DNA of 64,000 nucleotides from Candidatus Latescibacterota bacterium (GTDB lineage: Bacteria > Latescibacterota > UBA2968 > UBA8231): assembly GCA_965221775.1 (NCBI GenBank), contig CBDCSU010000006.1, forward strand, positions 1,600,001 through 1,664,000, given 5' to 3'. The position numbers were made by a program, and so were the translations under genes. The notes beneath the pieces are model-generated. The model had not been told where the DNA came from, searched no databases, and saw only the letters and a list, made by a program, of their open reading frames with translations. Every line of letters starts with the position of its first letter. The first letter of the stretch is position 1. Below are positions 8,773-63,865 of this stretch, piece after piece.

Positions 8773-8971
8773 GGGCGGCGCCGGCGGCTCCGGCCGCGCC
8801 TCGACGGCGCGTACGCCGGGCCTGATTGGTGGGGCTATCGACGGGGGTGGTTCGTGGGGTTGGCGAGCCCCTCGCTGCGCTCGGGTCTCTGGGTCCTCTT
8901 GGATGCGGGTGGTTGTTGACCCGGCCGGCGTAATGCGCCGCTCGGCTCGGCCTGCGCCGCCGTCGCCGCCC
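8773..8971 (+). repeat. Dispersed element A, copy 1
   Basis: Imperfect terminal inverted repeats, inner stem ggcgcgtacgccgg/ccggcgtaatgcgcc, core tggcgagcccctcgctgcgctcgggtctctggg. Confidence 0.95.
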
Positions 8972-9044
8972 TGGGCTCCCCGTGCCGGATGAACTTTTCC
9001 CCGCTGACGTCCGCCTTGCAGTGTGGAAGGGTGGACGACGCATC

Positions 9045-10445
9045 ATGACTGGCCCAGGCGACCATGTGTTGGCAGAGCAGGTTCGGCAGGGCTGCGAGGA
9101 CGCCTTCGTACGGCTGGTCCGGCGCTACGAACGGACGCTGGCGCGGCTGATCCGCGACCGGGTCGGTGGCGGCGACCAGGTTGAGGATGTCCTGCAGGAA
9201 ACCCTGGTGCACCTCTGGAGCGGCTTGCGCCGGGACACGCCGCGCGATGTGCGGCCCTGGCTGCTGCAGGTGGCCCGCAACCGCTGCCGCGACTACTTCC
9301 GTTCCACCCAGCGTCGCGAGCTGTTCGTCGAGACGGAGGTCTTGGCGCCCATGGTCAACCGCCTCGGCGTGGCCCAGGCCCGGCAGCGGGAAGCCGCCGC
9401 GGCCGTGGTCGAGGCCATGGAGGAGGTCCCCTACCGTGAGCGGGCTGCCCTGCGAGCCTTCTATCTGGACGGTCTGAGCATTGCCGAAATCGCCGCCCGC
9501 CACCGCTGCCCCGACGGCACGGTCAAGCGCCGACTGTCCCACGGGCGCGACCACGTCCGCAGGGTGCTGGGCGTCACCGCCAAGATGAGGAGCAAGACCA
9601 TGGGCGCTGGACAACAACGGCCCTTTCCCCGGTTCCGGCCCGAAATACGCATTGCCTCGAGCCAGGAGGACCCCTTCCGCATTGACTTGAAGGAGATGGC
9701 CTGGTGGTTCATCGTGCCCGAGGTGGGCGACCGCGTTCGCCACGGCTCATACGGGCCTTCCAGAGACGGCGAGGCGCCTTGGAGGCTGTCCCAGACCGTC
9801 TCCCTTGCGGCCAGCCGCCCCGCGGTCATCCACGGCCGTCCCTGCGTTGAGGTGGAGGTGGAGGAGCACCATCTCGCGGCGATGGCGGGGGACCACACGC
9901 CCACCGAAAAAAAGGACCGCATCGTGAAGGTCTGGGGCCGCCTTGCCGATGACTCGGTGGAGTGGATGGCGGTGGAGTCGTTGGGCGCGGACGGCACTCG
10001 GGAACTGATGACCTTTCTCGACGAGGGGTTCCACGACGACTGGGACCCTTCGCCGCGCCTGATCGAGGATCGCGGCTGCCTTCGCCCCCAGGCCGACGGC
10101 TCCCTCACCGTTCAGGCCGCCATCCCCCAGATAACCGGAGCCGGGGTGTTCGAGGTGCGCATCGGCGAGCGGTGCTTCACCTGCATGCGCGTCTTCGACC
10201 TGGAGAAAGAGACCAGCGAACGCGACGTCCTGGTCGAAGCTTATGTCACACGCACCGGACGCACGGTGCTGTTCCGACGCTACAACGGCAACCGATGGGG
10301 CAAGAGAGACGCCCCTCCGCACGGTTGGGGCGAGGAGATGACCTGGGAAGAGGACCTTCCCCACAACCACCGCATGGTCATCGGCGGAATGACCTTCGTG
10401 CACTACTACGACAGCCTGACGGACACGGCCTGCGTTACGGAGTGA
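9045..10445 (+). CDS. ECF sigma-70 factor with a long C-terminal extension
   Basis: Region 2 (EDVLQET...WLLQVARNRCRD) and region 4 (LSIAEIA...GTVKRRLSHGR), followed by ~280 aa I do not recognise. Start approximate. Confidence 0.85.
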   Translation: MTGPGDHVLAEQVRQGCEDAFVRLVRRYERTLARLIRDRVGGGDQVEDVLQETLVHLWSGLRRDTPRDVRPWLLQVARNRCRDYFRSTQRRELFVETEVLAPMVNRLGVAQARQREAAAAVVEAMEEVPYRERAALRAFYLDGLSIAEIAARHRCPDGTVKRRLSHGRDHVRRVLGVTAKMRSKTMGAGQQRPFPRFRPEIRIASSQEDPFRIDLKEMAWWFIVPEVGDRVRHGSYGPSRDGEAPWRLSQTVSLAASRPAVIHGRPCVEVEVEEHHLAAMAGDHTPTEKKDRIVKVWGRLADDSVEWMAVESLGADGTRELMTFLDEGFHDDWDPSPRLIEDRGCLRPQADGSLTVQAAIPQITGAGVFEVRIGERCFTCMRVFDLEKETSERDVLVEAYVTRTGRTVLFRRYNGNRWGKRDAPPHGWGEEMTWEEDLPHNHRMVIGGMTFVHYYDSLTDTACVTE

Positions 10446-10510
10446 CGGCCGCGGCCGATCCTTGAATCACCCATAGCGCATGGGTCGACGGGCCTGGCGA
10501 GCCCCTCACT

Positions 10511-10849
10511 TCACTCGGGACGCCACGCCGGGTGGGTGACATGCAGCAGAAAGGCCCGTTCCGGCACGGTGATGATCGTCTGCGTCCCCTTCTCGATGAA
10601 GCCCAGGTCCCCCGCCTCGTATCGCACCGGATCCTGGCCCTCGACCTGGACCTCCAGGTGCCCCTCCAGCATGTAGAAGACCTCGTCGTAGTCGAAGTTC
10701 CACGTCAGCCGGCTGGGCTCGACATACTCGGTGAAACCGGCCGACAGCCTGTCGCCGGCGCTTCTGATGGGATCGGAAACCCGCACGGTGGCGCCGGGCG
10801 CATCATAGGCGGCCAGGCCCCTCTGATCCTTCTGCACTCTCCAGATCAC
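10511..10849 (-). CDS. EutQ-like cupin
   Basis: LSAGF...WNFDYDEVFYMLEG...AGDLGFIEKG...HPAW. Confidence 0.8.
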   Translation of the reverse strand: MIWRVQKDQRGLAAYDAPGATVRVSDPIRSAGDRLSAGFTEYVEPSRLTWNFDYDEVFYMLEGHLEVQVEGQDPVRYEAGDLGFIEKGTQTIITVPERAFLLHVTHPAWRPE

Positions 10850-10862
10850 GACGCAACTCCTT

Positions 10863-11741: not shown

Positions 11742-11903
11742 GTTTCGGGTGCTCCTTTCTCGGCTCCTCGAGTCACTCATGCCGCAGCGCGTCGACGGGG
11801 CTCGACCACGCCGCCCGCAGGGTCTGCGAGCAGGTCGTGAGCACCGCCAGGACGAGGACGGCGGCGGTGGCGGCGGTGAAGACCCCCGGCCCGGGCGCGG
11901 CAA

Positions 11904-11932
11904 TTGACCTGGTTACTTGACCAAGTTAGTCT
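11904..11932 (+). promoter_or_regulatory. sigma70-like promoter with an operator palindrome for the phd-vapC pair
   Basis: TTGACC-N17-TAGTCT, with ACTTG-AC-CAAGT (11915-11926) inside the spacer. Confidence 0.6.
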
Positions 11933-12610: not shown

Positions 12611-12638
12611 TTCCTCGAGCCGCTGGCGCGCCGATCTC

Positions 12639-19584: not shown

Positions 19585-19611
19585 GGGTCTCCTCGTGGGG
19601 TCTCCTCGTGC

Positions 19612-19814
19612 TGGCGGTGCCCGGCGGCTCCGGCCTCGCCTCGGCGGCGCGTACGCCGGGCTTTAGTGGTGGATCTATCGCCTTGGGTGATCCTCAGGGC
19701 TGGCGAGCCCCTCGCTTCGCTCGGGTCTCTGGGCCTTCTGGATGAGTTTGGTTGTTGACCCCGGCCCGGCGTAAGGGCGCCGCTCGGCTCGGCCTGCGCC
19801 GCCGGGCACCGCCC
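19612..19814 (+). repeat. Dispersed element A, copy 2
   Basis: Arms ggcggtgcccggcggc/gccgccgggcaccgcc; core variant ctcgcttcgctc. Confidence 0.95.
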
Positions 19815-19855
19815 AGGGTTCGGATTGCTGCCCACCCCTCGCTTCTCTTGTGGGT

Positions 19856-19905
19856 GTGGCGCCGGGTGGGATTCTGTGCCGGTGGTGGATCCGGCGCCAC
19901 TCGAT
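19856..19905 (+). repeat. Hairpin module B following copy 2
   Basis: gtggcgccgg...ccggcgccactcgat. Confidence 0.85.
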
Positions 19906-19964
19906 GCGGTGCCCGCAGGCCAGCGGTTGCCGCTGTCACCGCTGAGCCGCACGAAGGCAGGCCG

Positions 19965-20560: not shown

Positions 20561-20762
20561 TGGGCGGTGACTGCGGCTCCGGCCTCGCCTCGGCGGCGCG
20601 TACGCCGGGCTGCGTTGGTGGATCTATCGCCTTGGGTGATCCTCAGGGCTGGCGAGCCCCTCGCTGCGCTCGGGTCTCTGGGCCTTCTGGATGAGGCTGG
20701 TTGTTGACCCCGGGCCGGCGTAATGCGCCGCTCGGCTCGGCCTGCGCCGCCGTCACCGCCCA
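20561..20762 (+). repeat. Dispersed element A, copy 3
   Basis: Arms gggcggtgac/gtcaccgccc; interior nearly identical to copy 2. Confidence 0.95.
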
Positions 20763-20784
20763 GGGGTTGGATCGCTGGCCACAT

Positions 20785-20814
20785 GCGCCGGTGGTGACTC
20801 CGGCGCCACTCGAT
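20785..20814 (+). repeat. Truncated hairpin module B following copy 3
   Basis: gcgccggtggtgactccggcgccactcgat. Confidence 0.7.
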
Positions 20815-20955
20815 GTGGTGGTGCGCTGCCCTGGTGGGGCCGCGTCGTCACAGAAGCCGTACAATAGCGCAAGCCAGCTGCGGCTGGTCCCGATGAATTG
20901 CCGACGATTCGCCGGTTCCCGGTCCCCTTCGTCGAAAATGTACCCATTGCGAATA

Positions 20956-25811: not shown

Positions 25812-25843
25812 GGGTCTGCCTTCTTGGGGGTCTCGCCTCGGGC

Positions 25844-26041
25844 GGGCGTCGCCGGCGGCTCCGGCCGCGCCTCGGCGGCGGCGTACGCCGGAGTGGTTGG
25901 GGGGACTATCGCTGAAGGGGATCCTTGGGGCTGGCGAGCCCCTCGCTGCGCTCGGGTCTCTGGGCCCTCTGAAATGAAGGAGGTGATGACCCCCCGGCGT
26001 AATGCGCCGCGACGGCGCGGCCTGCGCCGCCGGCGACGCCC
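25844..26041 (+). repeat. Dispersed element A, copy 4
   Basis: Arms gggcgtcgccggcggc/gccgccggcgacgccc; conserved core. Confidence 0.95.
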
Positions 26042-26140
26042 TTGGAGGGGAGGGTTTGTGGTCGGCGGCGTGGCCAAGTGCAGAGGAGGACTCGCGACGG
26101 GAATGTGGTGAAAGATGGACATGGGACTTTGGTGCCGGGA

Positions 26141-29396: not shown

Positions 29397-29601
29397 GGGC
29401 GGTGCCGGCGGCTCCGGCCGCGCCTTTGGCGGCGCGTACGCCGGGCCTGGTTGGTTGGGGCTATCGACTGGGGGTGGGTTCGTGGGGCTGGCGAGCCCCT
29501 CGCTTCGCTCGGGTCTCTGGGCCCTCTTGGATGCGTGCAGGTGGTGACCCCGCCCGGCGTAGTGCGCCGCCCAGGCGCGGCCTGCGCCGCCGGCACCGCC
29601 C
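29397..29601 (+). repeat. Dispersed element A, copy 5
   Basis: Arms gggcggtgccggcggc/gccgccggcaccgccc; core ctcgcttcgctc. Confidence 0.95.
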
Positions 29602-29642
29602 TGCGTGGGTGAGATCCGGCACACTCTTTCTTGTGAACCGGG

Positions 29643-29692
29643 GTGGCGCCTGACGGGGTCCTGGGCCGATGGTGGGTCCGGCGCCACTCGAT
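29643..29692 (+). repeat. Hairpin module B following copy 5
   Basis: gtggcgcc...ccggcgccactcgat. Confidence 0.8.
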
Positions 29693-29747
29693 CTGGTGGG
29701 GCGCCAGCTTGGTGGCCTGTTGTTGACGGGGTAATCATCACGAAGGC

Positions 29748-45741: not shown

Positions 45742-45863
45742 GCTTCCACCATGACCCGCTCGAGGCCGTCCTGCTCCTCGCTGCCGTGGTCGTCGAGGAA
45801 CAGCTGCCGCTCGCCGCCGATGTGGATTGTCATGGGTCTGAGGCCCGATGCCACCCCGCTCGT

Positions 45864-46367: not shown

Positions 46368-46368
46368 C

Positions 46369-47496: not shown

Positions 47497-47807
47497 CCTG
47501 GCTCCCTGCTGGGGGAATTGCTGGGCGGGGAGGTCGCCCCGCTTAAGTTATCTTCGCGACACCGCACTGTCCAGTTGTATATTTCTCTCTGTGTTTTGGG
47601 CCCGCCTCAAGCAGCCCATCGATACCTCGGATACCTCATGGAGCTTGCCGTTACCTGGACGATCTGCTGTGCGCCTCACCTACTAAACCCCGATCCTGTC
47701 CATGTCAATCTCTCCCTCCAAGGATCGAGGCCACCGTCTTGAGAGCCTAGTAGCGGCTCTCTATAGTAGCCTCAAGACACGCAAGGAATCGGACGGGAGA
47801 AACCATC

Positions 47808-48551: not shown

Positions 48552-48601
48552 CTGCCGCCCGGCCGGCGGAAACGCCGCGCCCGCCGCTCCTGCCAGCCCT
48601 C

Positions 48602-50567: not shown

Positions 50568-51241
50568 GATCTCTGGTCGTCGAGGACGAGGCGGCCATCG
50601 CCCGGGTGCTGGTCGACAACCTGATCTACGAAGGCCACGAGGCCGAGGCGGTCGCCGACGGCGCCGAGGGGCTGGAGCGGGCCCTGGCCTGCAAGCCGGA
50701 CCTGATTCTCCTCGACGTGGTCCTGCCCACCATGGATGGATACGAGGTCTGCCGCCGCCTGCGCGCCCGGGGATCGGCGACGCCCATCATCATGCTCACG
50801 GCCCGCGGCGAGGAGGTGGACAAAGTCCTGGGCCTGGAGCTGGGAGCCGACGACTACGTCACCAAGCCGGTGGGGGTCCGAGAGTTGATGGCCCGCATCA
50901 AGGCGGTGCTGCGACGGGGCGAGCCGGAGGCCGCGGCCGGGGCGGTGCTGGAGTTCGGCCCGGCGCGGGTCGACTTCGACCGCCACGAGGCGACCATGGA
51001 GGGCGGCACTGTGCACCTGTCCCCCAAGGCCTTCGGGGTGCTCCGCCTTCTGTGGGAGAGCGGGGGCCGCACCCTGACGAGGGCGCAGATCCTCCAGCAG
51101 GTATGGGGGTACGTGGTCTACCCCACCACGCGAACGGTGGACAACCACATCGCCGAACTGCGGAGCCGCCTGGAGCCCGACCCGTCGCGCCCGCGCCACC
51201 TGCTCACGGTACACGGGGTGGGGTACCGCTTCGTGGAGTGA
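50560..51241 (+). CDS. OmpR-family response regulator (1-bp frameshift near 50571)
   Basis: MPRI/LVVEDE split across frames; LLDVVLP, GADDYVTKP, RTVDNHI, TVHGVGYRF. Confidence 0.9.
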
Positions 51242-51264
51242 TGCCTCGGCCGCCAGGCCCGGCA

Positions 51265-51302
51265 GTACAACCTTTTTGCACCTCCATGACATATCCGTGA
51301 CA
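51265..51302 (+). promoter_or_regulatory. Putative OmpR/PhoB-type binding site
   Basis: 11-bp periodic repeats gtaca, ttgca, TGACA, TGACA between the regulator and the next gene. Confidence 0.45.
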
Positions 51303-51380
51303 ACCCGGATCGCCCCGGTCCGCAGGTTTGCGGGTGAGCCTGACGACGCGCATCCGCCCACCCGAACCGGGAGGTCCACC

Positions 51381-53030: not shown

Positions 53031-53297
53031 AGCGTCCGCCCGTTCAGTCGAAACCGCGCAAGGCCGACGCCGACTGCAGAAGGTCCGGATAGTCCTCGAC
53101 GAACTGCTCCTGGACTCCCGCGGCCGGAGCGAGGCGGATCGTGTGGAGCTCCACACCGACGTGGCGCCTCCAGTGCTTCCAGTGCCGCCGTCCCGTCATG
53201 CCATGGTCGATCGCGGTGAAGATCCGGCTCACGGACTCTTGCCCGCACGGGGGTGACCGGCGATAATGGCCCACCCCCGATCCCGATCCGAGGCCCC

Positions 53298-54170
53298 ATG
53301 GAAGACCACTCCACACTCAAGCAACTGCTCGCCCGCGACCGCATCCTGGTCGCCCCGTGCTGCTACGACATGATATCGGCGCGCCTCATCGAGCGGGCCG
53401 GCTTCGAGGCCGTCTATCTCGGCGGCTACGCTCACGTGGCGTCCCACGTCGGGCTGCCCGACGCCGGGCTGGCCACATTCTCCGAGATGCTGGAGCGGGT
53501 CCACAATCTGGTCCGCTGTGTCGGCATTCCCGTCCTCGCCGACGGCGACACCGGGTACGGGAACGCCCTGAACATGCGCCGCACCGTCCAGGAGTACGAG
53601 CAGGCCGGCGCCCAGGCGATCCAGATCGAGGACCAGGAGATGCCGAAGAAGTGCGGCCACACCCCGGGCAAGCGGCTGATCGGGGCGGAGGAGATGGCGC
53701 TGAAAGTCGAGGCGGCCGCCCATTCCCGGCGTAGCGACGACTTCCTGATCGTCGCGCGGACCGACGCCATCGCTGTCCTGGGGCTGGAGGAGGCCGTGGA
53801 GCGGGGGAAGCTCTACGAGCGGGCGGGAGCGGACGTCGTCTTTCTCGAGGCGCCGAGAACGGTGGAGGAGCTGAAGGCCGCGGCCGGATCCTTCGGCGTC
53901 CCGACGATGGCCAACCTGATCGAGGGCGGGAAGACGCCCTTCCTCTCGACGGCGGAGTTGCAGGAACTGGGGTTCAGGATCGCGGCGTATCCGCACTCCC
54001 TGATCCTCGGCTGCATCCGCTCGATCCAGAAAACGCTCAGGGCGCTCAAGGAGGATGGAACGACGCGGGCGGTGGCCGGGGAGATGTCGGATTTCGCGGA
54101 GCTGGACGAGCTGATCGGCTTTCCCGAGGCGCGGGCCTGGGAGGCGAGGTACACGCCCAAGGAGGCCTGA
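53298..54170 (+). CDS. Isocitrate lyase/PEP mutase family (PrpB-like)
   Basis: GLPDAG, ADGDTGYG, QIEDQEMPKKCGH, ARTDA. Confidence 0.92.
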   Translation: MEDHSTLKQLLARDRILVAPCCYDMISARLIERAGFEAVYLGGYAHVASHVGLPDAGLATFSEMLERVHNLVRCVGIPVLADGDTGYGNALNMRRTVQEYEQAGAQAIQIEDQEMPKKCGHTPGKRLIGAEEMALKVEAAAHSRRSDDFLIVARTDAIAVLGLEEAVERGKLYERAGADVVFLEAPRTVEELKAAAGSFGVPTMANLIEGGKTPFLSTAELQELGFRIAAYPHSLILGCIRSIQKTLRALKEDGTTRAVAGEMSDFAELDELIGFPEARAWEARYTPKEA

Positions 54171-54182
54171 TCCGCCTTCCGG

Positions 54183-54379
54183 TCGGCGCCGGCGGCTCCG
54201 GCCGCCTTCGGCGGCGCGTACGCCGGGCATCGTTGGGGGATCTATCGTGGGGGTGGTTCGAGGGGTTGGCGAGCCCCTCGCTGCGCTCGGGTCCCTGGGC
54301 CTCCGGGATGAGTAACAGTTGTTGACCCCGCCCGGCGTAGTGCGCCGCAACGGCGCGGCCTGCGCCGCCGTCACCGCCC
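54183..54379 (+). repeat. Dispersed element A, copy 6
   Basis: Conserved core and inner stem; the right arm overlaps the stop codon of the convergent gene. Confidence 0.93.
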
Positions 54380-55873
54380 TGAGGCAGAGTCGAAGCCGTA
54401 GGCGTAGAGCCGGGCCCTTCCGTAGAGCCAGAACTTCAGCCGGAAACGCTGCTCCCCCACGTCGCGGAGCCTACCCCCGCGCCAGCGCACTGCCTCGCGC
54501 CAGCCGTCGGTGCACAGGTCCCGGCAGTCCTCCCGCCGGAAGCCCTCCAGGGGCTCCAGGGTCTCGGCGTCCAGCACTTCCACCTCCACCCAGCTGCGGT
54601 TCTGGCGCACCTCTCCCACGTTGACCGTCAGCGCCGTCGAGTGGTCGATCCGCTCCACGGGAGCGGTGACCGCCCAGCCGGGCACCTCCCGGTCGGCCGA
54701 CTCGAGGCAGGTCCAACCGTCCTCCCGCAGGGTGGCCAGCCCCAGCCGCGACAGGCGGACCTGGCCGGTGCTCCCGTAGGGGTAGTGGTCGGGCGTGTTC
54801 TCGCCGGGCCAGCTGGTCCACTCCTCGCCGTTGCCGCCGTAGAAGAGGTGGATCACGCCGTCCTTGATGGCCGGCTTGTCGGCGATCACCAGCAGGCCGC
54901 TGTCCCACTCCTGGGTGCCCCCGCGCGGGATGAGCGGCTGGTGTCGGTCGACCCGCTCGAAGCGCTCGCCGTCGGCGCTGACCGCCAGGCGCACGTCGGC
55001 GTAGTAGGTGCCGTAGACGCCGTAGCCGTTCGGCACGTACCAGCCGAACTCGTAGGGCATGGCCCAGGCGCCGCCGTAGGGCGCCAGCATGACGTGATGG
55101 TTCTCGTACTCGAAGCCGTCGGCGGGGGAGAGGATCGGGTTGTGGTCCGCTTCCCGCAGGTCCTCCATGTCCGGCCCCCAGGTGAGGAACTTGGCGCGGC
55201 CCCCTTCCTTGTCCGGCTTGTCCATGGGCACCAGGGCCTGCCACACCAGCTTGAACCGCCGCGAGGGATCCGGCTCCTGGTCGTCGCGGATCAGCGCGCC
55301 GGGGTCGCCGTAGGCGAGGGAACGGTCGCGCCAGTCGGGCTGGCGCAGGCCCGGTCCCTCGGTCCAGTGGATGCCGTCCGGCGAGTAGTTCAGCCGCATG
55401 CCGCGGTTCTCGCCCGCCGCCACGGCGCCGTCGGTGCGCGGCCTCGGCCCTCGCAGGATCATCTTGTAGCGCCGGGCCGGGTCCGGCTCGGCCGGGTCCT
55501 TGATCACGGGGCCGTAGCCCATGACGACGATGTTGTTGTCGCGGGAGCCGCGGAACTCGTGCAGCCCCAGGCGCGGCTTCTCCCAGGTCACGCCGTCGGT
55601 GCTGGTGGCGTAGCCGACCGCGGTCCAGCGTTCCGGCGCGATGTCGGAGCCGGAGTACCAGGCCTTGAAGACGCGGTCCTCCTCGTCCCAGATGACCGTC
55701 GGCGACGACCACGGCCGGGCCTGGGCGGAGTCCCACTCGTGCATGTCCCCCAGGGGCAGGACCGGGTTGTTGGGGTGCTTCTCGGCCTCGCAGACGCGGC
55801 GGACGACGTGGTGGGTCTGTTCGATTCCGTTCAGAAGGAGGAAGCCGTCGCGGCTCCCGGCGGAGGTATCCAT
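54371..55873 (-). CDS. Hypothetical beta-propeller glycosidase-like protein
   Basis: KHPNNPVL, YATSTDGVTWEKP.LG, SPDGIHW, GLATLREDGW, ARLYAY. Confidence 0.65.
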   Translation of the reverse strand: MDTSAGSRDGFLLLNGIEQTHHVVRRVCEAEKHPNNPVLPLGDMHEWDSAQARPWSSPTVIWDEEDRVFKAWYSGSDIAPERWTAVGYATSTDGVTWEKPRLGLHEFRGSRDNNIVVMGYGPVIKDPAEPDPARRYKMILRGPRPRTDGAVAAGENRGMRLNYSPDGIHWTEGPGLRQPDWRDRSLAYGDPGALIRDDQEPDPSRRFKLVWQALVPMDKPDKEGGRAKFLTWGPDMEDLREADHNPILSPADGFEYENHHVMLAPYGGAWAMPYEFGWYVPNGYGVYGTYYADVRLAVSADGERFERVDRHQPLIPRGGTQEWDSGLLVIADKPAIKDGVIHLFYGGNGEEWTSWPGENTPDHYPYGSTGQVRLSRLGLATLREDGWTCLESADREVPGWAVTAPVERIDHSTALTVNVGEVRQNRSWVEVEVLDAETLEPLEGFRREDCRDLCTDGWREAVRWRGGRLRDVGEQRFRLKFWLYGRARLYAYGFDSASGR

Positions 55874-55882
55874 GGTGTCCTT

Positions 55883-57142
55883 TCAGTTGAGGAGCAGGTC
55901 GGCAACCGGGAGTGCGAGCACCCGGGAGCTGAGCGCATGGGGCTCGGAGCAGCCGCAGGCCAGAACCCCGAACGGCGCCTCCGGATAGCTGTCGAGAAAC
56001 GCTTCGAGGCCTCGGGCGTCGTCTCCCCTTGGCCGAGCGGTCGTCTTGACTTCGAGCGGCAGGGGCGTGCGGCCGGATTCCAGGACGAAGTCCACCTCCT
56101 CCCCGGCGGCGGTGCGCCAGTGGCAGAGGGAGATCCGCGGCACCTGAAGCGACGCGAAGGCCAGGAGGTGAATGCACACCCAGTTCTCCAGCCAGGCCCC
56201 CCACTCCCGGCTCTCCTGCAGCGCTTCCGCGTCGAAGATGCCGGCGAGGTGCGCGGCGAGCCCGGTGTCGGACCAGAACAGCTTCGGCGCCTTGACGAGA
56301 CGCTTGCCGCGATTGACCGAGTATGGGGGGATTCGCAGCAACTGGAAGGAGACCTCGAGGGTTCCCAGGTACCGCCGTGCCGTCGCCGCCGAGAGACCGG
56401 CGTCGCGCGAGAGGGAGGCCGCATTGGCGAGACGTCCGTTGTGGCCGGCGACGATCTGCATGAGACTGCGAAAGTCGACGAGGTTGTCCGTTGCCGACAG
56501 GTCGCGCAGGTCTCGCTCGAGATAGGTCTGCATGTAACCGTCGAACCACCGGGTCCGGAACTCCGCATCCGGGCTCAGGCTCGGAACGGGATAGCCTCCG
56601 GCCATGATCGCCTCCCGCAAAGGGCGGGAGGGCGCGGGGGCCCGCTCGAGCCCGGAGAGGACGGCCTCGAGGGACCGCTCGCCCACCAGGAGGGAGAGAT
56701 TCCTTCCGAACTCGCGGCCCTCAACCTCGGCCCAGGTCAGTCCCGGCAGCTGGAAATACACGGCGCGACCCGCAAGGCTCTCCGACACCCGGCGCATGAG
56801 AAGCAGATTGGCGGAGCCGGTGAGAAGGAATCGGCCGGCCCGGCGGTCGGCGTCTACCGCCCGCTTGACCGCGAGCAGGAGATCCGGCTCCCTCTGAACC
56901 TCGTCGATGGTGACGCGGTTGCGGCCGATGAACAAGGCGTCGGGATCCCGTTGCGCCACCTCGCGGGTCTGGAAGTCATCGAGGGTGAGGTAGACTCGTT
57001 CCCGGGAGACCTCGGGGAGGGTGGCGATTGTCGTCTTGCCCGTTTGACGCGCCCCCTGCAACACGACGACCGGGTGTTGGCCGAGGGTGTGGGCGAGGGC
57101 GGAGGTCTGATACCTCGAAACGGTCTTGTGCAAATCGATCAT
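55883..57142 (-). CDS. AAA_14 ATPase with DUF4143 domain (paralog of 12690..13919)
   Basis: GARQTGKT, IDEVQ, LLTGSA, YLERD, KAPKLFWSDTG, EVDFV...PLEVK. Confidence 0.93.
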   Translation of the reverse strand: MIDLHKTVSRYQTSALAHTLGQHPVVVLQGARQTGKTTIATLPEVSRERVYLTLDDFQTREVAQRDPDALFIGRNRVTIDEVQREPDLLLAVKRAVDADRRAGRFLLTGSANLLLMRRVSESLAGRAVYFQLPGLTWAEVEGREFGRNLSLLVGERSLEAVLSGLERAPAPSRPLREAIMAGGYPVPSLSPDAEFRTRWFDGYMQTYLERDLRDLSATDNLVDFRSLMQIVAGHNGRLANAASLSRDAGLSAATARRYLGTLEVSFQLLRIPPYSVNRGKRLVKAPKLFWSDTGLAAHLAGIFDAEALQESREWGAWLENWVCIHLLAFASLQVPRISLCHWRTAAGEEVDFVLESGRTPLPLEVKTTARPRGDDARGLEAFLDSYPEAPFGVLACGCSEPHALSSRVLALPVADLLLN

Positions 57143-57178
57143 GTCTTGATGGATAATCCGTCACGGCATGATTGTCAA
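57138..57178 (-). promoter_or_regulatory. Promoter with a palindromic operator upstream of DUF4143 ATPase 2
   Basis: Minus strand: TTGACA (57178-73), then TGACGGATTATCCATCA (57163-47), flanked symmetrically by ATCATG/CATGAT. Confidence 0.6.
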
Positions 57179-57221
57179 GCGGCCAGGGCCTGGAGTCTAT
57201 TGGCGGCAGGGGGTCCCGCGA

Positions 57222-57424
57222 GGGGGCGGCGTCGGCGGCTCCGGCCGCGCCTTCGAGGGCGCGTACGCCGGGCATGGTTGGGGGAGCTATCGCCGAGGGG
57301 TGATTCGGTGGGCTGGCGAGCCCCTCGCTGCGCTCGGGTCTCTGGGCCTCCGGGATGAGGACAGTTGTTGACCCCCCCGGCGTAATGCGCCGCTCGGCGC
57401 GGCCTGCGCCGCCGACACCTCCCT
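57222..57424 (+). repeat. Dispersed element A, copy 7
   Basis: Arms gtcggcggc/gccgccgac; conserved core. Confidence 0.95.
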
Positions 57425-57475
57425 GGGGGGACCTGACCCCGGGAGAGCAGTCACCACCCGCCTTGTGTTTGCGGG

Positions 57476-57519
57476 GTGGCGCCTGCAAGGGGACCTGAAC
57501 CGGCGCAGTCCGGCGCCAC
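57476..57519 (+). repeat. Hairpin module B following copy 7
   Basis: gtggcgcc...ccggcgccac. Confidence 0.75.
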
Positions 57520-57683
57520 GCCATGGGCCTTGCGCAGGGCCGTGGGGCGGGCGGCAACCCGACTCCAGCTCGTCGTAGAAGCCGAACTCCAGGGTTTCCC
57601 CGAGGCCGAGGCCGACCGGGGCGCGGGCCGGGATCACGTATACCGCTTGCTCGGTCCGCCGGCTCGCCAGGCCGCAGGACATA

Positions 57684-58238
57684 ATGATGAAGATCGATCA
57701 GACAAGGACGGAGCGGGAATGGATCCGGAAGATCCGGCTGGGCGATGGAGCGGCCTTCGAAAGACTGTTCCGCTTCTACTGCCAGCCCCTGGTGCGCTTC
57801 GTCCGCCGTTACGTGGGGGATACATCCATAGCGGAGGACCTGGTCCAGGATCTCTTCCTCGCCGTGTGGTCGAACAGGCCGCGTCTGGATCCCGAGATGA
57901 ACATCAGGACCTATCTGTATGCAGCGGCGAGAAACCGGGCGCTGAAACATCTGCGACACGGTGAAGTGGAACGCCGGAGCGCGGCAGATGTGGAACAGGC
58001 GCTGCCCCGCCAGAAGACCCCCGAGGAGGAACGACAGGGAAAGGAACTTGCCGACGGCGTTGCGGAGGCGATCGAGGCGCTCCCCGAGAGGACCCGGATC
58101 GTCTTTTCGATGAACCGGTTCGACCGCCTGACCTATGCCGAAATCGCCGAAATCCAGGGTGTCTCCATCAAGACGGTCGAGACCCAGATGGGGCGGGCCC
58201 TGAAATTCCTGCGCCACCGCCTCTCGCACTTTCTCTGA
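57684..58238 (+). CDS. ECF sigma-70 factor (FecI-like)
   Basis: AFERLF, AEDLVQDLF, YLYAAARNRAL, LTYAEIA...SIKTVETQMGRALK. Confidence 0.93.
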   Translation: MMKIDQTRTEREWIRKIRLGDGAAFERLFRFYCQPLVRFVRRYVGDTSIAEDLVQDLFLAVWSNRPRLDPEMNIRTYLYAAARNRALKHLRHGEVERRSAADVEQALPRQKTPEEERQGKELADGVAEAIEALPERTRIVFSMNRFDRLTYAEIAEIQGVSIKTVETQMGRALKFLRHRLSHFL

Positions 58239-58351
58239 ATTCCCACCGCCGCCTCCGGGTGGTTCCTTGTCAGGGTATTGGCCGCCTCGGGGGTTGTACG
58301 GATGATTGCTCCGCTCACATGTTGCTTCCTCTGAACCCGGAGATCCGGCTG

Positions 58352-59029
58352 ATGAAAAGGACCATCGGAACATTCACCCTGCTGTCTTGCGCCTTCATGC
58401 TGTACCCCGGCGAAGGATCCGCTGCAGACGGGGTCAACAGTGGAGGGGACGTGCTCAACGAGGCCCCCATCTGGCCGGTTCCGCCCGGGATGACCCTCGA
58501 GGAATACACCGACGCCAATCGCAGACTGGGCGTCGGCCTGGCCCTGATGTCCGTGCCCATCCCCGGGGCGCTGCACTTCTATGCCGGTGAAAGGAGAGAA
58601 GGGTGGATGCATGTCGGGGCCGCTGCACTGGGAGGCGCTTCCATTCTGCTCGGAGCAGCCATGCTCGACGGGAAAGAGAATGGCTGGAAAAAGACGGACT
58701 TTGAAACCGTCGACATAGAAGGAACAAGTGGTGAGGTAGTGAGATATGAGAAGATCCCTGTCGAGGAAGAAGGCGGAGTGTATACCTACCGGCTGAAAGA
58801 GCTCGAGCGCAAAGCCGAGGGGGCCGGAGCTGCATTGGTGGCTCTGGGAGCAGGATTGCTGGTGGGTCAGTTGTTGCACGACTTGGTCGACGGCATAAAG
58901 ACGATCGAGCGCAAGAGGGACGCAGTGAGGTACAAGTACGGCAAGGCAACGGGCTATGAGTTGAGCCTGAATCCCGATGCGGATATCGAGCAGGGCCGTC
59001 TCGGGGCGAGGCTTTCGCTGCGTTTCTGA
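58352..59029 (+). CDS. Hypothetical exported/membrane protein
   Basis: Signal peptide, PGALHFYAG, hydrophobic segments, C-terminal LSLRF. Confidence 0.7.
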   Translation: MKRTIGTFTLLSCAFMLYPGEGSAADGVNSGGDVLNEAPIWPVPPGMTLEEYTDANRRLGVGLALMSVPIPGALHFYAGERREGWMHVGAAALGGASILLGAAMLDGKENGWKKTDFETVDIEGTSGEVVRYEKIPVEEEGGVYTYRLKELERKAEGAGAALVALGAGLLVGQLLHDLVDGIKTIERKRDAVRYKYGKATGYELSLNPDADIEQGRLGARLSLRF

Positions 59030-59033
59030 AATT

Positions 59034-60092
59034 GTGAACAAGCCATCCGACTGGGCCTTGCTGGCGCGGTACCTGTCCGGCGAGTGCACTGAAGAGGAGA
59101 AGGCGGAGGTCGAGTCGGCGATCGCCTCGGATCCTGAAAAACAGCGCCTCACCCGCTTCATGCGCTCCTTGTGGGATACCCCGGAGCCGCCGGCCCGCCC
59201 CTCTGATGTAGACAGGCTGTGGGACGAACTCGCCGGGAAGACCTGGATGGCCGCGGGGTCCGGAGCGGTTCAGCACCCCGGCCGTCGCGGGATCGGCAGG
59301 CGCCTTGTCGAGTGGCTTCAGCCGCAGCCGAAGCTCGCCCGGTACTGTGCGGCCGCGGCGTCCCTGCTCATCGTCTCCTCGCTGGCGTACCACGGATTCC
59401 AGGAGACCGGGATCTACCCGTCTTCCCGGCCGGCTCGACTGTTGACGCTGGCGGTTGAGAGCAGCGCAAGCGACGAGCTCACCCTGAGCGACGGAACCCG
59501 GATCCGCCTCGACGCCGGCAGCACTCTGCGCTACCCGGAGAGCTTCCGCGGCGACGGCCGCTCGGTCTTTCTCAGCGGCGAGGGGTATTTCGAAGTGGCG
59601 CCGGACGCGGACAGGCCGTTCAGGGTCCACCTCGACGGGGCGGTGGTCGAAGTGCTCGGGACCCGGTTCAACGTCAGGGCCTGGGAGACGGAACAGAGGG
59701 TCACCGTCGCCGTGGCGGAAGGGCGGGTGGCCTTCCATTCCGAGCGGGAGAAGAGAGATGTCGAGATCGGCCCCGGGCAGATGAGCACCCTGACCGAGAG
59801 CGGTCCGCCCTCCGGACCGAGCCCCGCCGATATCGACAGGCACCTGGGGTGGATGCGCCGGGAAGCGTTCTTCGACGACGCGCCGTTACGGGACGTCCTG
59901 TTCCAGCTCGAACGCTGGTACGGCGTGCAGTTCGCTCTCGAGGATACCTCCCTGGCCGCCGAACGGCTCAGCGTGTACATCAAGGGGGAGTCTCTCGAGG
60001 ACGTTCTCGAGCTGATCTCGGTCCTGACGGGACTGGACGGCCGGCGCGATGACCGCCGGATCCTGCTGCAACCGGGAGGCATGGGCGATTGA
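59034..60092 (+). CDS. FecR-family anti-sigma factor
   Basis: LLARYLSGECT.EE, TM helix, LSDGT.I.LDAGS, LSGEGYFEVA, VLGTRFNV, LERWYGV. Confidence 0.92.
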   Translation: MNKPSDWALLARYLSGECTEEEKAEVESAIASDPEKQRLTRFMRSLWDTPEPPARPSDVDRLWDELAGKTWMAAGSGAVQHPGRRGIGRRLVEWLQPQPKLARYCAAAASLLIVSSLAYHGFQETGIYPSSRPARLLTLAVESSASDELTLSDGTRIRLDAGSTLRYPESFRGDGRSVFLSGEGYFEVAPDADRPFRVHLDGAVVEVLGTRFNVRAWETEQRVTVAVAEGRVAFHSEREKRDVEIGPGQMSTLTESGPPSGPSPADIDRHLGWMRREAFFDDAPLRDVLFQLERWYGVQFALEDTSLAAERLSVYIKGESLEDVLELISVLTGLDGRRDDRRILLQPGGMGD

Positions 60093-62650
60093 TGGATCGA
60101 TTGAGGGGAGGGGTGATCTGGATGCTGGCGGCGGTCGCCACCGCCGCGCTGAACGACACCTCGTCGGCGCGGACGCCGGAGTCCCTTCTCACCGTGATTT
60201 CCGTCGATCTCGAGAACGTCTCTCTCGAGTCGGCGCTGGCGGCGATCGCGGCAAAGGGGGACTTCGACTTGAGCTACAACCGCAGCCGCCTTCCGGTGGG
60301 CGAGAAGGTGACCGTGAGGATGGAGGAGGTCAGCGCCCTCAAAGCCCTGTCCTACGTGTTGGAGGAGACCGACGCGGAACTTGCCGTAACCAGCGACGGA
60401 CAACTCGCGGTCGTTCCCTCCGCGGCTGCCGGTGACCGGCGGACGAAGATCCCGGCCACCCTCAGCGGTTTCGTCCGCGACCGCAGCGACGGCGAGCACC
60501 TGCCGTATGCCTCGGTCGTGGTCGGGGACCAGCAGATGGGCACCCTGACCAACGTCGACGGCTACTACGCTCTGCCGGGCCTTCCGGCCGGGACCTGGGT
60601 GATCACCGTCTCCTCCATCGGCTACGCCGCTTACCGGGACACCCTCCACCTCGCCGCCGGCCAGGAGCTGCGCCGGGACATCGAGCTGATCAGGGAGTCC
60701 CTGGAGCTGGAGGCGGTGGTGGTGAAGACGGAGGCGGACCGGGTCGAGAACGAGCTGAGTCCGCAGTCGAGTGTCGTCGTCCTGCCGATGAAGTCGCTGC
60801 GGAAGATGCCGGCCATGGGCGAGCCCGACCTGCTGCGCAGCCTGCAGCTGCTGCCCGGCGTCCAAAGCGCTTCCGACTTCAGCAGCGGCCTCTACGTGCG
60901 CGGCGGCGGACCCGACCAGACCGGCATCCTGCTGGACCAGGTGCGGCTCTACAACCCGGCCCACGCCTTCGGCTTCTTCTCCACCTTCAACCCGGATGCC
61001 ATCAAGGACGTGACCTTCTACAAGGGGGCCTACCCGGCCCGCTACGGCGGCAACCTCGGGGCCATCCTCGACGTCCAGAACCGCGACGGCAACCGGCGCC
61101 GGTTCAGCAACAGCGGCGGCGTCAGCCTGATCTCCAGCCGCTACATGAGCGAGGGGCCCCTCGGCCAGGGCTCGTGGATGGTGGCCGGGAGGCGCACCTA
61201 CATCGATCCGGTGCTGCGGGCGGTGGGCCGCAGCGCCGACGGCCTCGACCTGGGCTACTGGTTCTACGACCTCAACGCCAAGATCAACACCCAGCTGACC
61301 CCCGACGACAACCTCATGATCAGCGCCTACGGGGGTGAGGACCATCTCGACATTTCGCTGAGCGACAGCACCGACGCCGACAACAACACCCTCTCCTTCG
61401 GCAACGAGTGGGGCAACCGCGCCCTCACCGGGCGCTGGACGCACCTGTTCTCGCCGGCGCTCTTCGGGCGCGCCATCCTCCTGTATTCCAAGTACCACAG
61501 CGACATCATCATCGATTTCTTCGGCACCCCGGTCGAGATCCGCAACAAGGTGCGGGACGTCACCTTCAAGGGGGACTTCGACTGGTTCGCCTCCCCCGAG
61601 CACACCTTGCGCGCCGGTGTCGACCTCACCCGCTTCCGCTTCGACTACGGGGTGCGCTTCGACGAGTACGAAGAGGACCAGGTCGTCCGTCCCTATCTGC
61701 TGTCGGCCTACATCCAGGACGACTGGCAGGTGACGCCCCTGACCGAGGCCTTGGTGGGTCTGCGCGGAACCTTCTACGAGGAAGGCCGACGCCTGTCCCT
61801 GAATCCGCGTCTCTCGCTCAGCCGCGTCCTGCACGACGGCTGGCGCCTCAAGCTCGCCGGAGGAAGCTACCAGCAACTGCTTCAACTGGTGTCGACGGAA
61901 GGCTTCGAGAGCGGCAACCTCTGGATCCCCCTCGACGAGACCGTGGATCCGGGGCGCTCCTACCAGGTGGTCTCGGGACTGGAGTGGGATCCCTCCGTCA
62001 CCTGGCGGGTCACCGTCGAGTCCTACTACACCGGCCTGACCAACCTGGTGGTCCTCGACGAGGACCAGGAGGAGAATGCCGAGGAGGTGACATCGGAGGA
62101 CATCTTCAAGACCGGGGGGAAGGGATACGCCACCGGCCTGGAAGTGTTCGCCGAGAGACGACGCGGGCGCCTGACCGGCTGGCTGGGCTACACCCTCGGA
62201 TGGACGCGGAGGAGATTCCCGGAGATCGACGAGGGCCGCTCCTTTCCACCCAAGTACGACCGGCGGCACGACCTCTCGCTGACCGCCAGGTACGGATCGG
62301 GCCCCTGGACCTGGACGGCCAACTTCGTCTACGGCACGGGCCAGGCCTTCACTCCGGCGGCGGCGCGCTACACCCTCCGCGACCCGGCGTCCGGCCGGCC
62401 CGTGGACCGGTTCCTGGCGGCGTCGCGCAACAGCGCCCGGCTGCTGCCCTACCACCGCCTCGATGCCGGGGTGCGGCGCCGGTCGCGCCTCTTCGGCGCC
62501 GAGGTCGAGTGGTACCTGCAGGTCTTCAATCTCTACAGCCGCCGCAACGAGTGGTTCATCCAGTACGATCCCGGGAATCCCGACCGGGAGGCGAGCGTTG
62601 TGAAGATGCTGCCCATCCTGCCGACCTTCGGCTTCGACTTCAGGTTCTGA
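60089..62650 (+). CDS. TonB-dependent receptor with an N-terminal signalling (STN-like) domain
   Basis: GTLTNVDGYY, GEPDLLRSLQLLPGV, YVRGGGPDQ, YKGAYPARYGG, C-terminal Phe. Confidence 0.92.
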   Translation: MMDRLRGGVIWMLAAVATAALNDTSSARTPESLLTVISVDLENVSLESALAAIAAKGDFDLSYNRSRLPVGEKVTVRMEEVSALKALSYVLEETDAELAVTSDGQLAVVPSAAAGDRRTKIPATLSGFVRDRSDGEHLPYASVVVGDQQMGTLTNVDGYYALPGLPAGTWVITVSSIGYAAYRDTLHLAAGQELRRDIELIRESLELEAVVVKTEADRVENELSPQSSVVVLPMKSLRKMPAMGEPDLLRSLQLLPGVQSASDFSSGLYVRGGGPDQTGILLDQVRLYNPAHAFGFFSTFNPDAIKDVTFYKGAYPARYGGNLGAILDVQNRDGNRRRFSNSGGVSLISSRYMSEGPLGQGSWMVAGRRTYIDPVLRAVGRSADGLDLGYWFYDLNAKINTQLTPDDNLMISAYGGEDHLDISLSDSTDADNNTLSFGNEWGNRALTGRWTHLFSPALFGRAILLYSKYHSDIIIDFFGTPVEIRNKVRDVTFKGDFDWFASPEHTLRAGVDLTRFRFDYGVRFDEYEEDQVVRPYLLSAYIQDDWQVTPLTEALVGLRGTFYEEGRRLSLNPRLSLSRVLHDGWRLKLAGGSYQQLLQLVSTEGFESGNLWIPLDETVDPGRSYQVVSGLEWDPSVTWRVTVESYYTGLTNLVVLDEDQEENAEEVTSEDIFKTGGKGYATGLEVFAERRRGRLTGWLGYTLGWTRRRFPEIDEGRSFPPKYDRRHDLSLTARYGSGPWTWTANFVYGTGQAFTPAAARYTLRDPASGRPVDRFLAASRNSARLLPYHRLDAGVRRRSRLFGAEVEWYLQVFNLYSRRNEWFIQYDPGNPDREASVVKMLPILPTFGFDFRF

Positions 62651-62654
62651 GACG

Positions 62655-63644
62655 ATGCCCCTATTCCTGTCGCTTCTGGCTCTCGTGCCGCTCCTCTCCT
62701 GTGACGCGCCCGGCCCCCTGGCGGCCAACCGGGGTCCCGGGCAGCTGTTCGGTCCCGCCGAGGACGAGATCATCGTGGTCGACGCGACCCTGATCGTCGA
62801 CGCGCCGCTGCCGCCGGTCATGCTGCGGCTCACGGAGGCGCCCGGGGTTCCCTACGAAGCCGCGGCCACCGGTCTGGCCGGGGCCGAGGTCCTGATCCGG
62901 AGCGGCGACGCCTCCTTCGAGTACCGCCCCGACCCGGCCACGGCGGGGCGCTACCTGGCCCCCGACGGAGCGCCGCCCGTGGAGCCCGGCCGCGACTATG
63001 AGTTGCAGGTGACCAGCGGTGACGCTCCCGTGGTGCGCGCCCGGACCCTGACGCCGGCGCGGCTGCGCATCGAGGAGCTGGTGTGGCTCGACGACGACCT
63101 GGAGACCGAGCTGCAGCAGCTCAGGCTGTTCTCCGAAATCGGGGAGCAGGTCTACGACGCCAGGGAGAACCAGGTGGAGTACATCCGGGGACTGCTGATC
63201 GCCCGGCTCGAGGAGGCCGGAGAGGCCGGGTTCTACCAGTTCGCCACGTCCAACCTCGAGAGCTCCAGTCCGTACTTGTTCGACAGCGATTGGATCGAGG
63301 AGGAAGAGGAGGAGTTCGACCTGGAGCGCGACAGCACCTCCCCTCTCTTTCGCGCCGAAGAGGGCGAGCTCTACGTCCCCTGGGACGGCATCTACTACGC
63401 CGGCCGCTACAAGGTCAGGCTCTACGCCGTGGACCGGAACTGGTACGACCTGGTGCGGACCGACAACATCGATGCCGATCGCGGCACCGGGGAAGCGGGC
63501 GAGTCCTTTCAGCGGCCTCTGTTCCACGTCGAGAATGGGATCGGTCTGTTCGCCTCGGCCTCGGTGGACTCCTTCGGCTTCTTCGTGCGGCCCAGTGGGA
63601 GTGCGGCCTGCTCGGGGTGCGAGTGCTGGGAGTGCGGGGAGTGA
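62655..63644 (+). CDS. DUF4249-like lipoprotein
   Basis: Lipobox LLSC; GRDYELQV and HVENGIGLFAS motifs; follows a TonB receptor. Confidence 0.72.
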   Translation: MPLFLSLLALVPLLSCDAPGPLAANRGPGQLFGPAEDEIIVVDATLIVDAPLPPVMLRLTEAPGVPYEAAATGLAGAEVLIRSGDASFEYRPDPATAGRYLAPDGAPPVEPGRDYELQVTSGDAPVVRARTLTPARLRIEELVWLDDDLETELQQLRLFSEIGEQVYDARENQVEYIRGLLIARLEEAGEAGFYQFATSNLESSSPYLFDSDWIEEEEEEFDLERDSTSPLFRAEEGELYVPWDGIYYAGRYKVRLYAVDRNWYDLVRTDNIDADRGTGEAGESFQRPLFHVENGIGLFASASVDSFGFFVRPSGSAACSGCECWECGE

Positions 63645-63662
63645 TGGGGAGTTCTGGCGGGG

Positions 63663-63865
63663 GGGCGGTGCCGGCGGCTCCGGCCGCGCCTTCGGCGGCG
63701 CGTACGCCGGGCTTGGTTGGTGAGGCTATCGCCGGTGGTGGATTCGTGGGGCTGGCGAGCCCCTCGCTGCGCTCGGGTCTCTGGGCCTCCTGGATGTGTA
63801 CAGTTGATGACCCCGGCCCGGCGTAATGCGCCGCTCAGGCGCGGCCTGCGCCGCCGGCACCGCCC
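63663..63865 (+). repeat. Dispersed element A, copy 8
   Basis: Arms gggcggtgccggcggc/gccgccggcaccgccc; conserved core. Confidence 0.95.

Follow-up and report, generated by a model that had tools for sequence, protein, structure and literature searches.

A long structured palindromic repeat in a single co-oriented array of a Latescibacterota chromosome

How does a folded repeat come to occupy one stretch of a bacterial chromosome many times over, always in the same direction, and what does it do to the genes between its copies? The question is raised by 64,000 nucleotides (the window; C6:1600001-1664000, that is, contig CBDCSU010000006.1) from the genome of a Candidatus Latescibacterota bacterium (G000; assembly GCA_965221775.1, 5.36 Mb in 6 contigs, 96.8% complete), in which a palindromic element of about 200 bp recurs between genes. 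An earlier description made from the letters alone (the sequence-only reading) had taken it for a dispersed family, perhaps of non-autonomous mobile elements. The explanation that we prefer, and hold tentatively, is a strand-specific hairpin repeat that works at the level of DNA, gives rise to new copies nearby in direct orientation and serves as a substrate for recombination; with similar reserve we regard the element as a new family of long structured palindromic repeats.

A single array with a single orientation

The 33-nt core of the element occurs eight times in the window, always on the + strand and each time with at most one mismatch in a search that tolerated up to three (8861, 19701, 20650, 25932, 29489, 54267, 57314 and 63753), and has no match in 100 shuffled versions of the window. 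A profile built from the eight copies has 14 matches in the genome, all 14 of them on the + strand of C6:1587110-1664128, and an unfiltered genome search up to E = 10 gave no further convincing copy beyond this 77-kb array. One weak profile match in the spacer between sufB and sufC (C6:197048-197237) was shown by a covariance model to be a real, diverged member; 14 of the 15 copies of G000 are thus found within a single stretch of 77 kb. Under random orientation, the chance that 12 further full copies would agree in direction with the first is about 2 in 10,000. Bacterial interspersed palindromes (REP, ERIC or MITE-like, the last named after miniature inverted-repeat transposable elements) are normally scattered and of mixed orientation. 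The eight full copies of the sequence-only reading were confirmed by core and profile matches alike, and the word 'dispersed' has to be given up, because all copies but one belong to one co-oriented array; the restriction to one locus goes beyond that reading, as does an additional conserved part of about 140 bp at the 3' side of most copies.

The copies, all on the + strand, are described here by the limits of the hairpin itself (module A), which were taken from profile and covariance-model matches, and by the approximate limits of the 3' part (module B). Copy c1 (8772..8972, 196.8 bits) begins 4 bp past the stop codon of cysS and ends 10 bp ahead of a sigma-70-family gene; it lacks module B, as do c4 (25843..26042) and c6 (54181..54380), which has convergent genes on both sides. 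Copy c2 (19607..19817) has its left end some 30 bp away from the start codon of an MR_MLE gene on the - strand, and its module B, a spacer plus a degenerate 5' half copy, extends over 19818..19955. Its sister in a tree of copies is c3 (20561..20762, module B 20763..20880), a site that is empty in the related genomes G007 and G006. Copy c5 (29397..29602, module B 29603..29745) starts 27 bp past the stop of a sulfatase gene, and c7 (57223..57424, module B 57425..57560) and c8 (63663..63865, 207.3 bits) form the left and the right border of a 6.2-kb block of genes for an extracytoplasmic function (ECF) sigma factor, FecR, a TonB-dependent receptor and DUF4249. A spacer of 77 bp (63866..63942) separates c8 from the tandem copy d1, whose start occupies 63943..64000 and which combines a module-B-type left arm with a remainder like c8. 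Two partial copies had been noted previously: the one at 678 stands as a right outer arm only (678..725, model positions ~145-204; nhmmer E 0.33, BLAST 687-724 with E 6e-6), while the one at 63960 is d1, which starts at 63943 and continues as a tandem copy to C6:1664128.

Successive copies are 0.28 to 24.8 kb apart and are found in every type of intergenic spacer, and the genes that separate them are mutually unrelated and encoded on both strands. Relative to their neighbours, three of the 12 full array copies are sense, three antisense, three between convergent and three between divergent genes, which is the chance expectation and shows no tie to transcription; half of the array copies begin 4-27 bp past the stop of a + strand gene. 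The same uniformity is seen in the closed genomes of G007 (C1:2675958-2741357) and G006 (C1:3896409-3956905), where all array copies are on the - strand, and in G000, G006 and G007 a distance of about 140-220 kb separates the array from dnaA, with the array on the same side each time.

Fold, covariation and the RNA alternative

Alignment of the eight regions resolves the unit of ~200 bp into outer arms of ~28 nt, a second stem, an inner stem in which GCGCGTACGCCGG is paired with CCGGCGTAATGCGCC, G/T-rich linkers and the core. The outer arms pair along their whole length, and thus represent terminal inverted repeats, and the element ends read GGGCGG...CCGCCC. On the + strand of the window this amounts to an imperfect stem of ~45 bp capped by a branched apical part that contains the invariant 33-nt core. 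The irregularities of the stem are kept as well: the T.C and C.T mismatches of the outer stem, which flank one C-G pair, and the bulged A of the inner stem are identical in 34 of 34 copies. Arms, inner stem and invariant core are as the sequence-only reading had them, and the element is indeed longer and more complex than REPs. For one copy, a folding energy of -147.7 kcal/mol was calculated on the + strand (z = -7.9, equalled by none of 200 shuffles) and of -132.4 kcal/mol on the - strand (z = -8.25).

The pairing is supported by covariation at two depths. Among the 34 distinct array-type copies, 96.8% of the cells pair, and double-sided changes affect 8 pairs and 27 cells, compared with 3.4 pairs and 7.9 cells in shuffles (0 of 500 reach the observed values) and with a maximum of 5 pairs and 11 cells in slid controls; the compensatory changes noticed earlier in the arms are thereby borne out. 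When diverged members are added (20 sequences, 92.1% of cells paired), double-sided changes are seen at 37 of 50 pairs and in 121 cells, compared with 19.4 pairs and 33.7 cells after shuffling (again reached by 0 of 500) and at most 21 pairs and 38 cells in slid controls, in an alignment that was fitted to a covariance model and whose counts consequently lean towards structure. In the stems of 11 diverged members, G.U combinations outnumber A.C combinations by 18 to 3, and in the apical part by 26 to 2, which points to the + strand as the folding strand. Covariation in both alignments, together with the conservation of the core in place described below, supports the previous suggestion that folding is under selection.

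Behind the hairpin, module B is conserved in 10 of 13 copies of G000, that is, in all except c1, c4 and c6. Towards its 3' end it can be aligned with module A, namely with the left arm and the first linker, and the full unit of about 350-400 bp consists of the hairpin, a spacer and a degenerate half copy. Between c8 and d1, module B runs on into a complete second copy, and one contig of G005 contains two full copies 339 bp apart. The half-copy module and the complete tandem pairs indicate that hairpin, spacer and half copy together make up the unit, and that tandem forms exist. A coding role of the element was considered and rejected, as linker indels of 1-3 nt disrupt every frame.

A fold of this kind could also be read in RNA, and a structured RNA transcribed from the + strand, either from a family of small RNA genes or as a cis-antisense transcript opposite the 5' leader of the left-hand gene, is a serious rival, even if we consider it doubtful on balance. 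In that case a protein or an RNA would bind the core, and the long stem would signal processing or stability. Covariation at 37 of 50 pairs and the many retained G.U pairs, which exceed A.C on the + strand, are what such an RNA would leave behind; so are a core hairpin whose stem of 2-8 bp lies below a constant TGC loop, selection in place, ancient sites immediately upstream of sufC and ilvD, and a gene start abutting seven of eight low-copy members of the family (see below). Other observations speak against such an RNA. Copy alignments show no promoter-like conserved sequence upstream of the left arm beyond ~20 bp, and a pattern scan around c2 and c3 detected no sigma-70-like promoter, no terminator pattern and no terminator-like site downstream. 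Since half of the copies lie 4-27 bp past a + strand stop and three between convergent genes, an own + strand transcript from every copy would need promoters within unrelated genes, and a read-through transcript would hold the fold in only half of the copies. The strict chromosomal co-orientation would in addition go unexplained: a direction that is uniform along the chromosome despite mixed neighbours, combined with the lack of shared upstream sequence, is something that a transcription-linked role cannot account for. A sigma-54 promoter at the left border was also considered and rejected, as the GG/GC spacing fits some copies only. Many left flanks contain a GGGGTCTCCTGG-like motif, the complement of which is the ribosome-binding site of the left-hand gene.

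No Rfam family speaks for an RNA either. None of the Rfam 15 covariance models matched the window at or above its gathering score, and an E-value search of 63600-63930 returned as its sole match an unrelated vertebrate UTR (untranslated region) model with E 1.8; this agrees with the previous proposal of an undescribed family. The literature searched (Gemmatimonadota; sponge symbionts; repeats of intergenic or palindromic type; attC sites in Gemmatimonadetes) contained no description of such an element. Four metatranscriptome runs gave patchy, thin contig cover of window positions 44001-64000, informative on neither strand nor ends nor level, with one contig of 224 nt spanning 63782-64000; contigs of these runs also cover parts of the 6.2-kb block (57684-63644).

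Turnover of copies and their wider family

The arrays of G000, G006 and G007 are largely collinear at 85-95% identity and have collinear flanks; the differences are found at the copies. In G007 the two genes that flank u1 (C6:1587110, a unit of ~380 bp) have no such unit between them; c3 is missing in G007, and in G006 both c3 and a GNAT gene are missing. One of the empty sites is fairly clean. The succession of c7, 6.2-kb block, c8 and d1 in G000 corresponds to a single copy in G007 with the same outer flanks, and the ECF sigma/FecR/TonB-dependent receptor/DUF4249 set itself (genes 57684-63644) is present only in G000 among the three genomes compared, G007 and G006 being without it. Blocks have also changed places: the order of the element-plus-sigma segment and a cupin/PhyH block in G000 is opposite to that in G007 and G006, and fragments of the element mark the joints. 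One of them, an apical fragment on the + strand (10483..10523, model positions 80-120), lies at the joint of the sigma gene and the cupin/PhyH block, which is located elsewhere in the sister genomes; the junction fragments taken together comprise model positions 80-120, 55-117 and 13-50.

Target-site duplications, which the sequence-only reading had not seen either, were not found at the borders of u1, c3 or c7/c8. This is one of several difficulties for a classical MITE, a shortened insertion sequence (IS) that ends in terminal inverted repeats and depends for its movement on a DDE transposase acting in trans. Inverted arms of ~28 nt, a length of 200-400 bp, an intergenic location, the absence of coding capacity and lineage-specific subfamilies, which are seen in G091 and in the array clade, would all suit such an element. 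The arms, however, are found nowhere else in the genome, so that there is no parent IS with the same ends, and neither copy number nor location follows the IS load: G000 has almost no IS matches, whereas G006 has 15 rve and 19 DDE_Tnp_1 matches without any difference in copy number and with all of its copies in the array. The copies strictly share one orientation, their arms show a covariation that independent ends bound by a transposase would not require, and they are conserved in place. With no end duplications, no parent element, no link to IS elements, covarying arms and conservation in place, a plain MITE is very unlikely.

Blocks that are present, absent or reordered at co-oriented, similarly folded sites between unrelated genes also recall an integron, and the stems, split by a conserved unpaired spacer and carrying a bulged base, add to the resemblance. 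Giant attC-like sites whose integrase is encoded elsewhere or has been lost would form a cluster of attC sites lacking an integron integrase (CALIN), and the two or more co-oriented sites by which integrons and CALIN are recognised are present. Sites of the attC type have R''/R' boxes (RYYYAAC ... GTTRRRY) and a length of 57-141 nt. In genomes, site clusters with no integrase nearby are a common occurrence (279 CALIN, of which half are in IntI-free genomes; PMC4889954), and the likeness to this repeat extends to co-oriented sites folded as single strands, shuffling of blocks and the possibility of integrase-free clusters (PMC4889954). In contrast to integrons, six of the seven tyrosine recombinases of G000 that were scanned (all but C6:1099219) gave a best TIGR02249 score of 98.5 bits, compared with a cut-off of 265, and no integron integrase was found among them. 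The ends GGGCGG...CCGCCC contain no R box of the GTTRRRY type. The sites are several times longer (~200 nt plus 140), the 'cassettes' measure 0.08-25 kb, comprise several genes and are encoded on both strands, and single units occupy new sites without any cassette. Furthermore, the junction fragments favour breaks at many positions over a single crossover point. An integron-type system therefore fails on integrase, site consensus and the nature of the 'cassettes', and we consider it improbable, but the locus is built and works like one.

Copies that are specific to one lineage resemble their neighbours. In a tree of 30 copies some positional orthologues cluster, and lineage-specific copies are sister to a neighbour in the same genome (c3 and c2, u1 and u2 plus u3, d1 and c8, and g7_24370 and g7_18643 in G007). 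The similarity between neighbouring copies stops at the edge of the ~380-bp unit and excludes the flanking genes.

The copies are at the same time conserved where they are. In 22 pairs of positional orthologues, 590 of 4360 cells differ (13.5%), and these differences are concentrated in the linkers; the 33 core columns have 30 differences, 15 of them at two adjacent positions, when about 95 would be expected at the mean rate. Third codon positions of the flanking genes are 75-96% identical. Differences that avoid the core indicate that the copies are under selection where they sit, and since core and much of the stems are kept at each site, they are not simple decaying copies. Such conservation would also suit a host cis-element with no copying of its own. 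This would be a cruciform or a site bound by protein, with a part in organising the chromosome, in replication or in regulating the island, and it would be inherited, spread by segmental duplication only and homogenised by gene conversion. The invariant 33-nt core, the fixed distance to dnaA in three genomes, the numerous paralogous gene families of the island and the signs of gene conversion among neighbouring copies can all be understood in this way. On the other hand, homology between copies ends with the ~380-bp unit and leaves out the flanking genes; members of the family are also present in unrelated places (the suf operon, between rny and ymdB, beside queC), and no candidate binding protein is known. 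We regard a host element of this kind as rather improbable.

Full-length copies were detected in five further genomes of the genus (G002, G004, G005, G006 and G007). A scan with the core, at one genome per species, gave 24 loci, all in metagenome-assembled genomes labelled mostly as uncultured Gemmatimonadaceae and in some cases as Latescibacterota or Bacteroidales. Genomes that have the locus at 85-95% identity are labelled Gemmatimonadaceae, Latescibacterota or Bacteroidales, and some of these labels must be wrong. The core pattern retrieved one contig from a metagenome collection, identical to an already known genome contig, and none from a viral collection. The covariance model R1, run on 76 genomes of the taxonomic family, found additional full-length matches of 38-65 bits in G001, G003, G008 and G009 of the same genus, in G091 of genus g6 and, outside the array, in G007 (C1:4270038). 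A broader model, R2, places the repeat in 7 of 41 genomes and 2 of 18 genera (g1 and g6). A scan of genome and relatives by covariance model, as the sequence-only reading had proposed, thus extends the repeat to a second genus, and in G000 itself it yields the single array plus one diverged copy. In diverged members the inner stem is kept, as are CGAGCC and GTCTC with G-rich bases behind it; the stem of their core hairpin varies in sequence and in length (2-8 bp) below a constant TGC loop. Co-oriented groups recur in G091, on C29 (812, 12845 and 20896, all -) and on C88 (36396 and 48337, both +). No syntenic locus was found in the more distant members of the genus (G009, G001, G003 and G008), in which only scattered matches of 64-76% identity were obtained.

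Some sites outside the array are old. The diverged copy of G000 in the sufB-sufC spacer lies 8 bp from the start of sufC and antisense to the operon, and the same site is occupied in G006, G007, G003 and G005. The spacer measures 382 bp in G000, 382 bp in G006, 314 bp in G003 and 288 bp in G005; in G009 it is 163 bp long and retains a remnant of the right arm only, and among 29 loci of other genera that were measured, 10 have a spacer of 2-19 bp. Similarly, G000 (u2, 76 bp) and G091 (142 bp) both have a copy just upstream of ilvD that points the same way relative to the gene, and their IlvD proteins are 84% identical. The sufB-sufC and ilvD sites are old, fixed sites. Other low-copy members are found between rny and ymdB, between a DUF4838 gene and an amidohydrolase gene, and beside queC. 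The sufB-proximal half of the sufB-sufC spacer (L085:2456-2642) contains a second conserved hairpin, also present in G006 and G003, whose loop TTCGCTGCGCTCA resembles the centre of the repeat core. The SufB protein of G000 (C6:197423-199996) has 857 amino acids and contains an intein with a LAGLIDADG domain; that of G007 is intein-free and has 500 amino acids.

Proposed local copying, known systems and the gene island

A strand-specific DNA hairpin that multiplies locally, the explanation that we prefer, could work as follows. New units would be placed near an old one and in the same direction, by copying on single-stranded or replicating DNA (template switching or a copy step linked to the fork) or, alternatively, by unequal exchange between tandem units, and a sequence-specific protein would read the core. 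Ordinary homologous recombination between the resulting direct repeats could then delete the blocks between them, insert blocks by way of circles and reorder them, and the locus would thereby become a variable, cassette-like island. The copying step, the recognising factor and the strand exposed at the fork are those parts of the scheme that we infer.

Several observations weigh against it. Among the families searched, no matching mobilising enzyme was found in G000: IS110, the serine recombinases (Resolvase) and DDE_Tnp_1 had no match, rve had one partial match (other transposase and DDE families were not searched), and the TnpB zinc ribbon was absent from all five genomes searched, G000 included. 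G000 encodes seven tyrosine recombinases; on C6, the nearest two are at distances from the array of ~490 kb and ~700 kb. That neighbouring copies group together would fit local duplication and also gene conversion, which three genomes cannot separate; nor do three genomes separate gain from loss, and the 'empty' sites could be deletions stimulated by the hairpin. A host function would account for the conservation in place no less well than an element that copies itself. At seven of eight low-copy members examined, a gene starts at the left end and reads away from it, which hints at a role in expression, and the lean of the 20-sequence counts mentioned above also belongs here. Finally, GC skew and dnaA disagree on the direction of replication through the array: the cumulative skew of C6 turns near 1.35-1.40 Mb, dnaA is at 1.806 Mb, and the skew tracks the local gene strand.

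The searches for enzymes of other types agree with this picture. Y1_Tnp (PF01797, RAYT/HUH) had no match in G000, in a search that was positive in 6 of 14 control genomes, and RVT_1 (PF00078) had none in G000 and matches far from the arrays in G006 and G007. No transposase or integrase was found among the genes of the window and the array, as the sequence-only reading had observed for the window; its suggestion to look for an HUH enzyme, a recombinase or a reverse transcriptase next to copies led to none, as none was found beside them and HUH, serine recombinase and RVT_1 had no match in G000. The idea of a non-autonomous mobile element survives in part: species differ by the gain or loss of copies, and there is one empty site that is fairly clean, but no matching transposase was found among the families searched, the IS-rich sister genome shows the same array-only distribution, and the copies are conserved in place. 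A bolder version, in which the hairpin is the recognition site of a new type of single-strand DNA copying or recombination system that sets new units beside old ones in the same direction and builds an integron-like, cassette-shuffling island from ordinary chromosomal genes without an HUH, tyrosine, serine, DDE or reverse transcriptase enzyme of a known family, or equally in which the repeat is a large class of structured RNA in co-oriented arrays, seems unlikely to us.

Comparison with known repeats sharpens what is particular about this one. REPs are 20-40 nt long, REPIN doublets ~70-110 nt, and both occur in tens to hundreds of copies genome-wide beside a RAYT gene. Like REP/REPIN-RAYT systems, the repeat described here is a non-coding, GC-rich, intergenic palindrome that is long kept, folds as a single strand and has no gene of its own; in contrast to them it is ~200 nt long, has a branched top and occupies one locus in one direction in a genome without Y1_Tnp. 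ERIC/IRU and Correia-type elements, likewise imperfect palindromes, measure 100-150 bp and have a conserved centre; related species share them at orthologous intergenic positions, and they are co-transcribed with their neighbours. They are scattered in both orientations, and their spread is unclear or trans-acting. By description only, the difference lies in the local co-oriented arrays, the greater length and the second half-copy module. IS200/IS605 elements and their gene-less derivatives share the recognition of folded single-stranded DNA and the lack of terminal duplications, and their fork-linked, strand-specific insertion leads to uniform orientation per replichore (PMC5027513, PMC6006769). 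Those elements need TnpA and two distinct subterminal hairpins, whereas a single long palindrome is present here and neither TnpA nor TnpB was found. The repeat belongs to none of these groups (REP/REPIN, ERIC/Correia, the latter compared by description, attC/CALIN and IS200/IS605).

The genes between the copies are diverse. The island encodes heparinase-like, ankyrin, WD40 and HEAT repeat proteins, a cysteinyl-tRNA synthetase (CysRS), two sigma-70-family proteins, at least eight PhyH dioxygenases, four enolase-superfamily (MR_MLE) enzymes, one sulfatase, a PIN protein, two DUF4143 ATPases, an HTH (helix-turn-helix)/M78 peptidase protein and the FecR/TonB-receptor set; paralogous families within it comprise the PhyH (at least eight), MR_MLE (four), DUF4143 (two) and ECF sigma (two) genes. 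The cysteinyl-tRNA synthetase gene (7359-8768 of the window) is located within the variable array, with c1 directly behind it. The ankyrin-repeat proteins (3142-3807 and 6045-7139) and a protein of 838 amino acids that consists almost entirely of WD40 repeats (20701-23217, 11 stretches) are repeat proteins of eukaryote-like type. Between 46000 and 48000, G+C dips to 0.62, compared with ~0.69 nearby, in a region that overlaps the HTH plus M78 peptidase gene and a possible PIN gene; this DNA may be recently acquired. To the left of the window, C6:1590420-1592650 encodes an AAA_21/AAA_15 ATPase (455 amino acids) and a DUF4435 protein (288 amino acids), a segment that is missing from G007; we presume from its make-up that this pair resembles a PARIS-type anti-phage pair. 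Copies beside ilvD, sufC, PhyH genes and the FecR-type cassette suggested an iron or Fe-S regulon, a candidate that was rejected, as convergent genes flank three of the copies and the neighbourhoods have too little in common.

Strong covariation combined with an invariant core, confinement to one locus and one direction in at least three species, turnover of copies and the lack of a recognisable mobilising enzyme set this repeat apart. It is a natural system in which to ask how folded repeats of DNA spread within a locus, and shows repeats making a chromosomal region into a modular, rearranging island. In G000 the contents of this island include defence-type genes, sulfatases, numerous Fe(II) dioxygenases and proteins with ankyrin, WD40 or HEAT repeats. 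Should the element turn out to depend on an RNA or a new enzyme, the alignment and the models would provide the handle for finding it.

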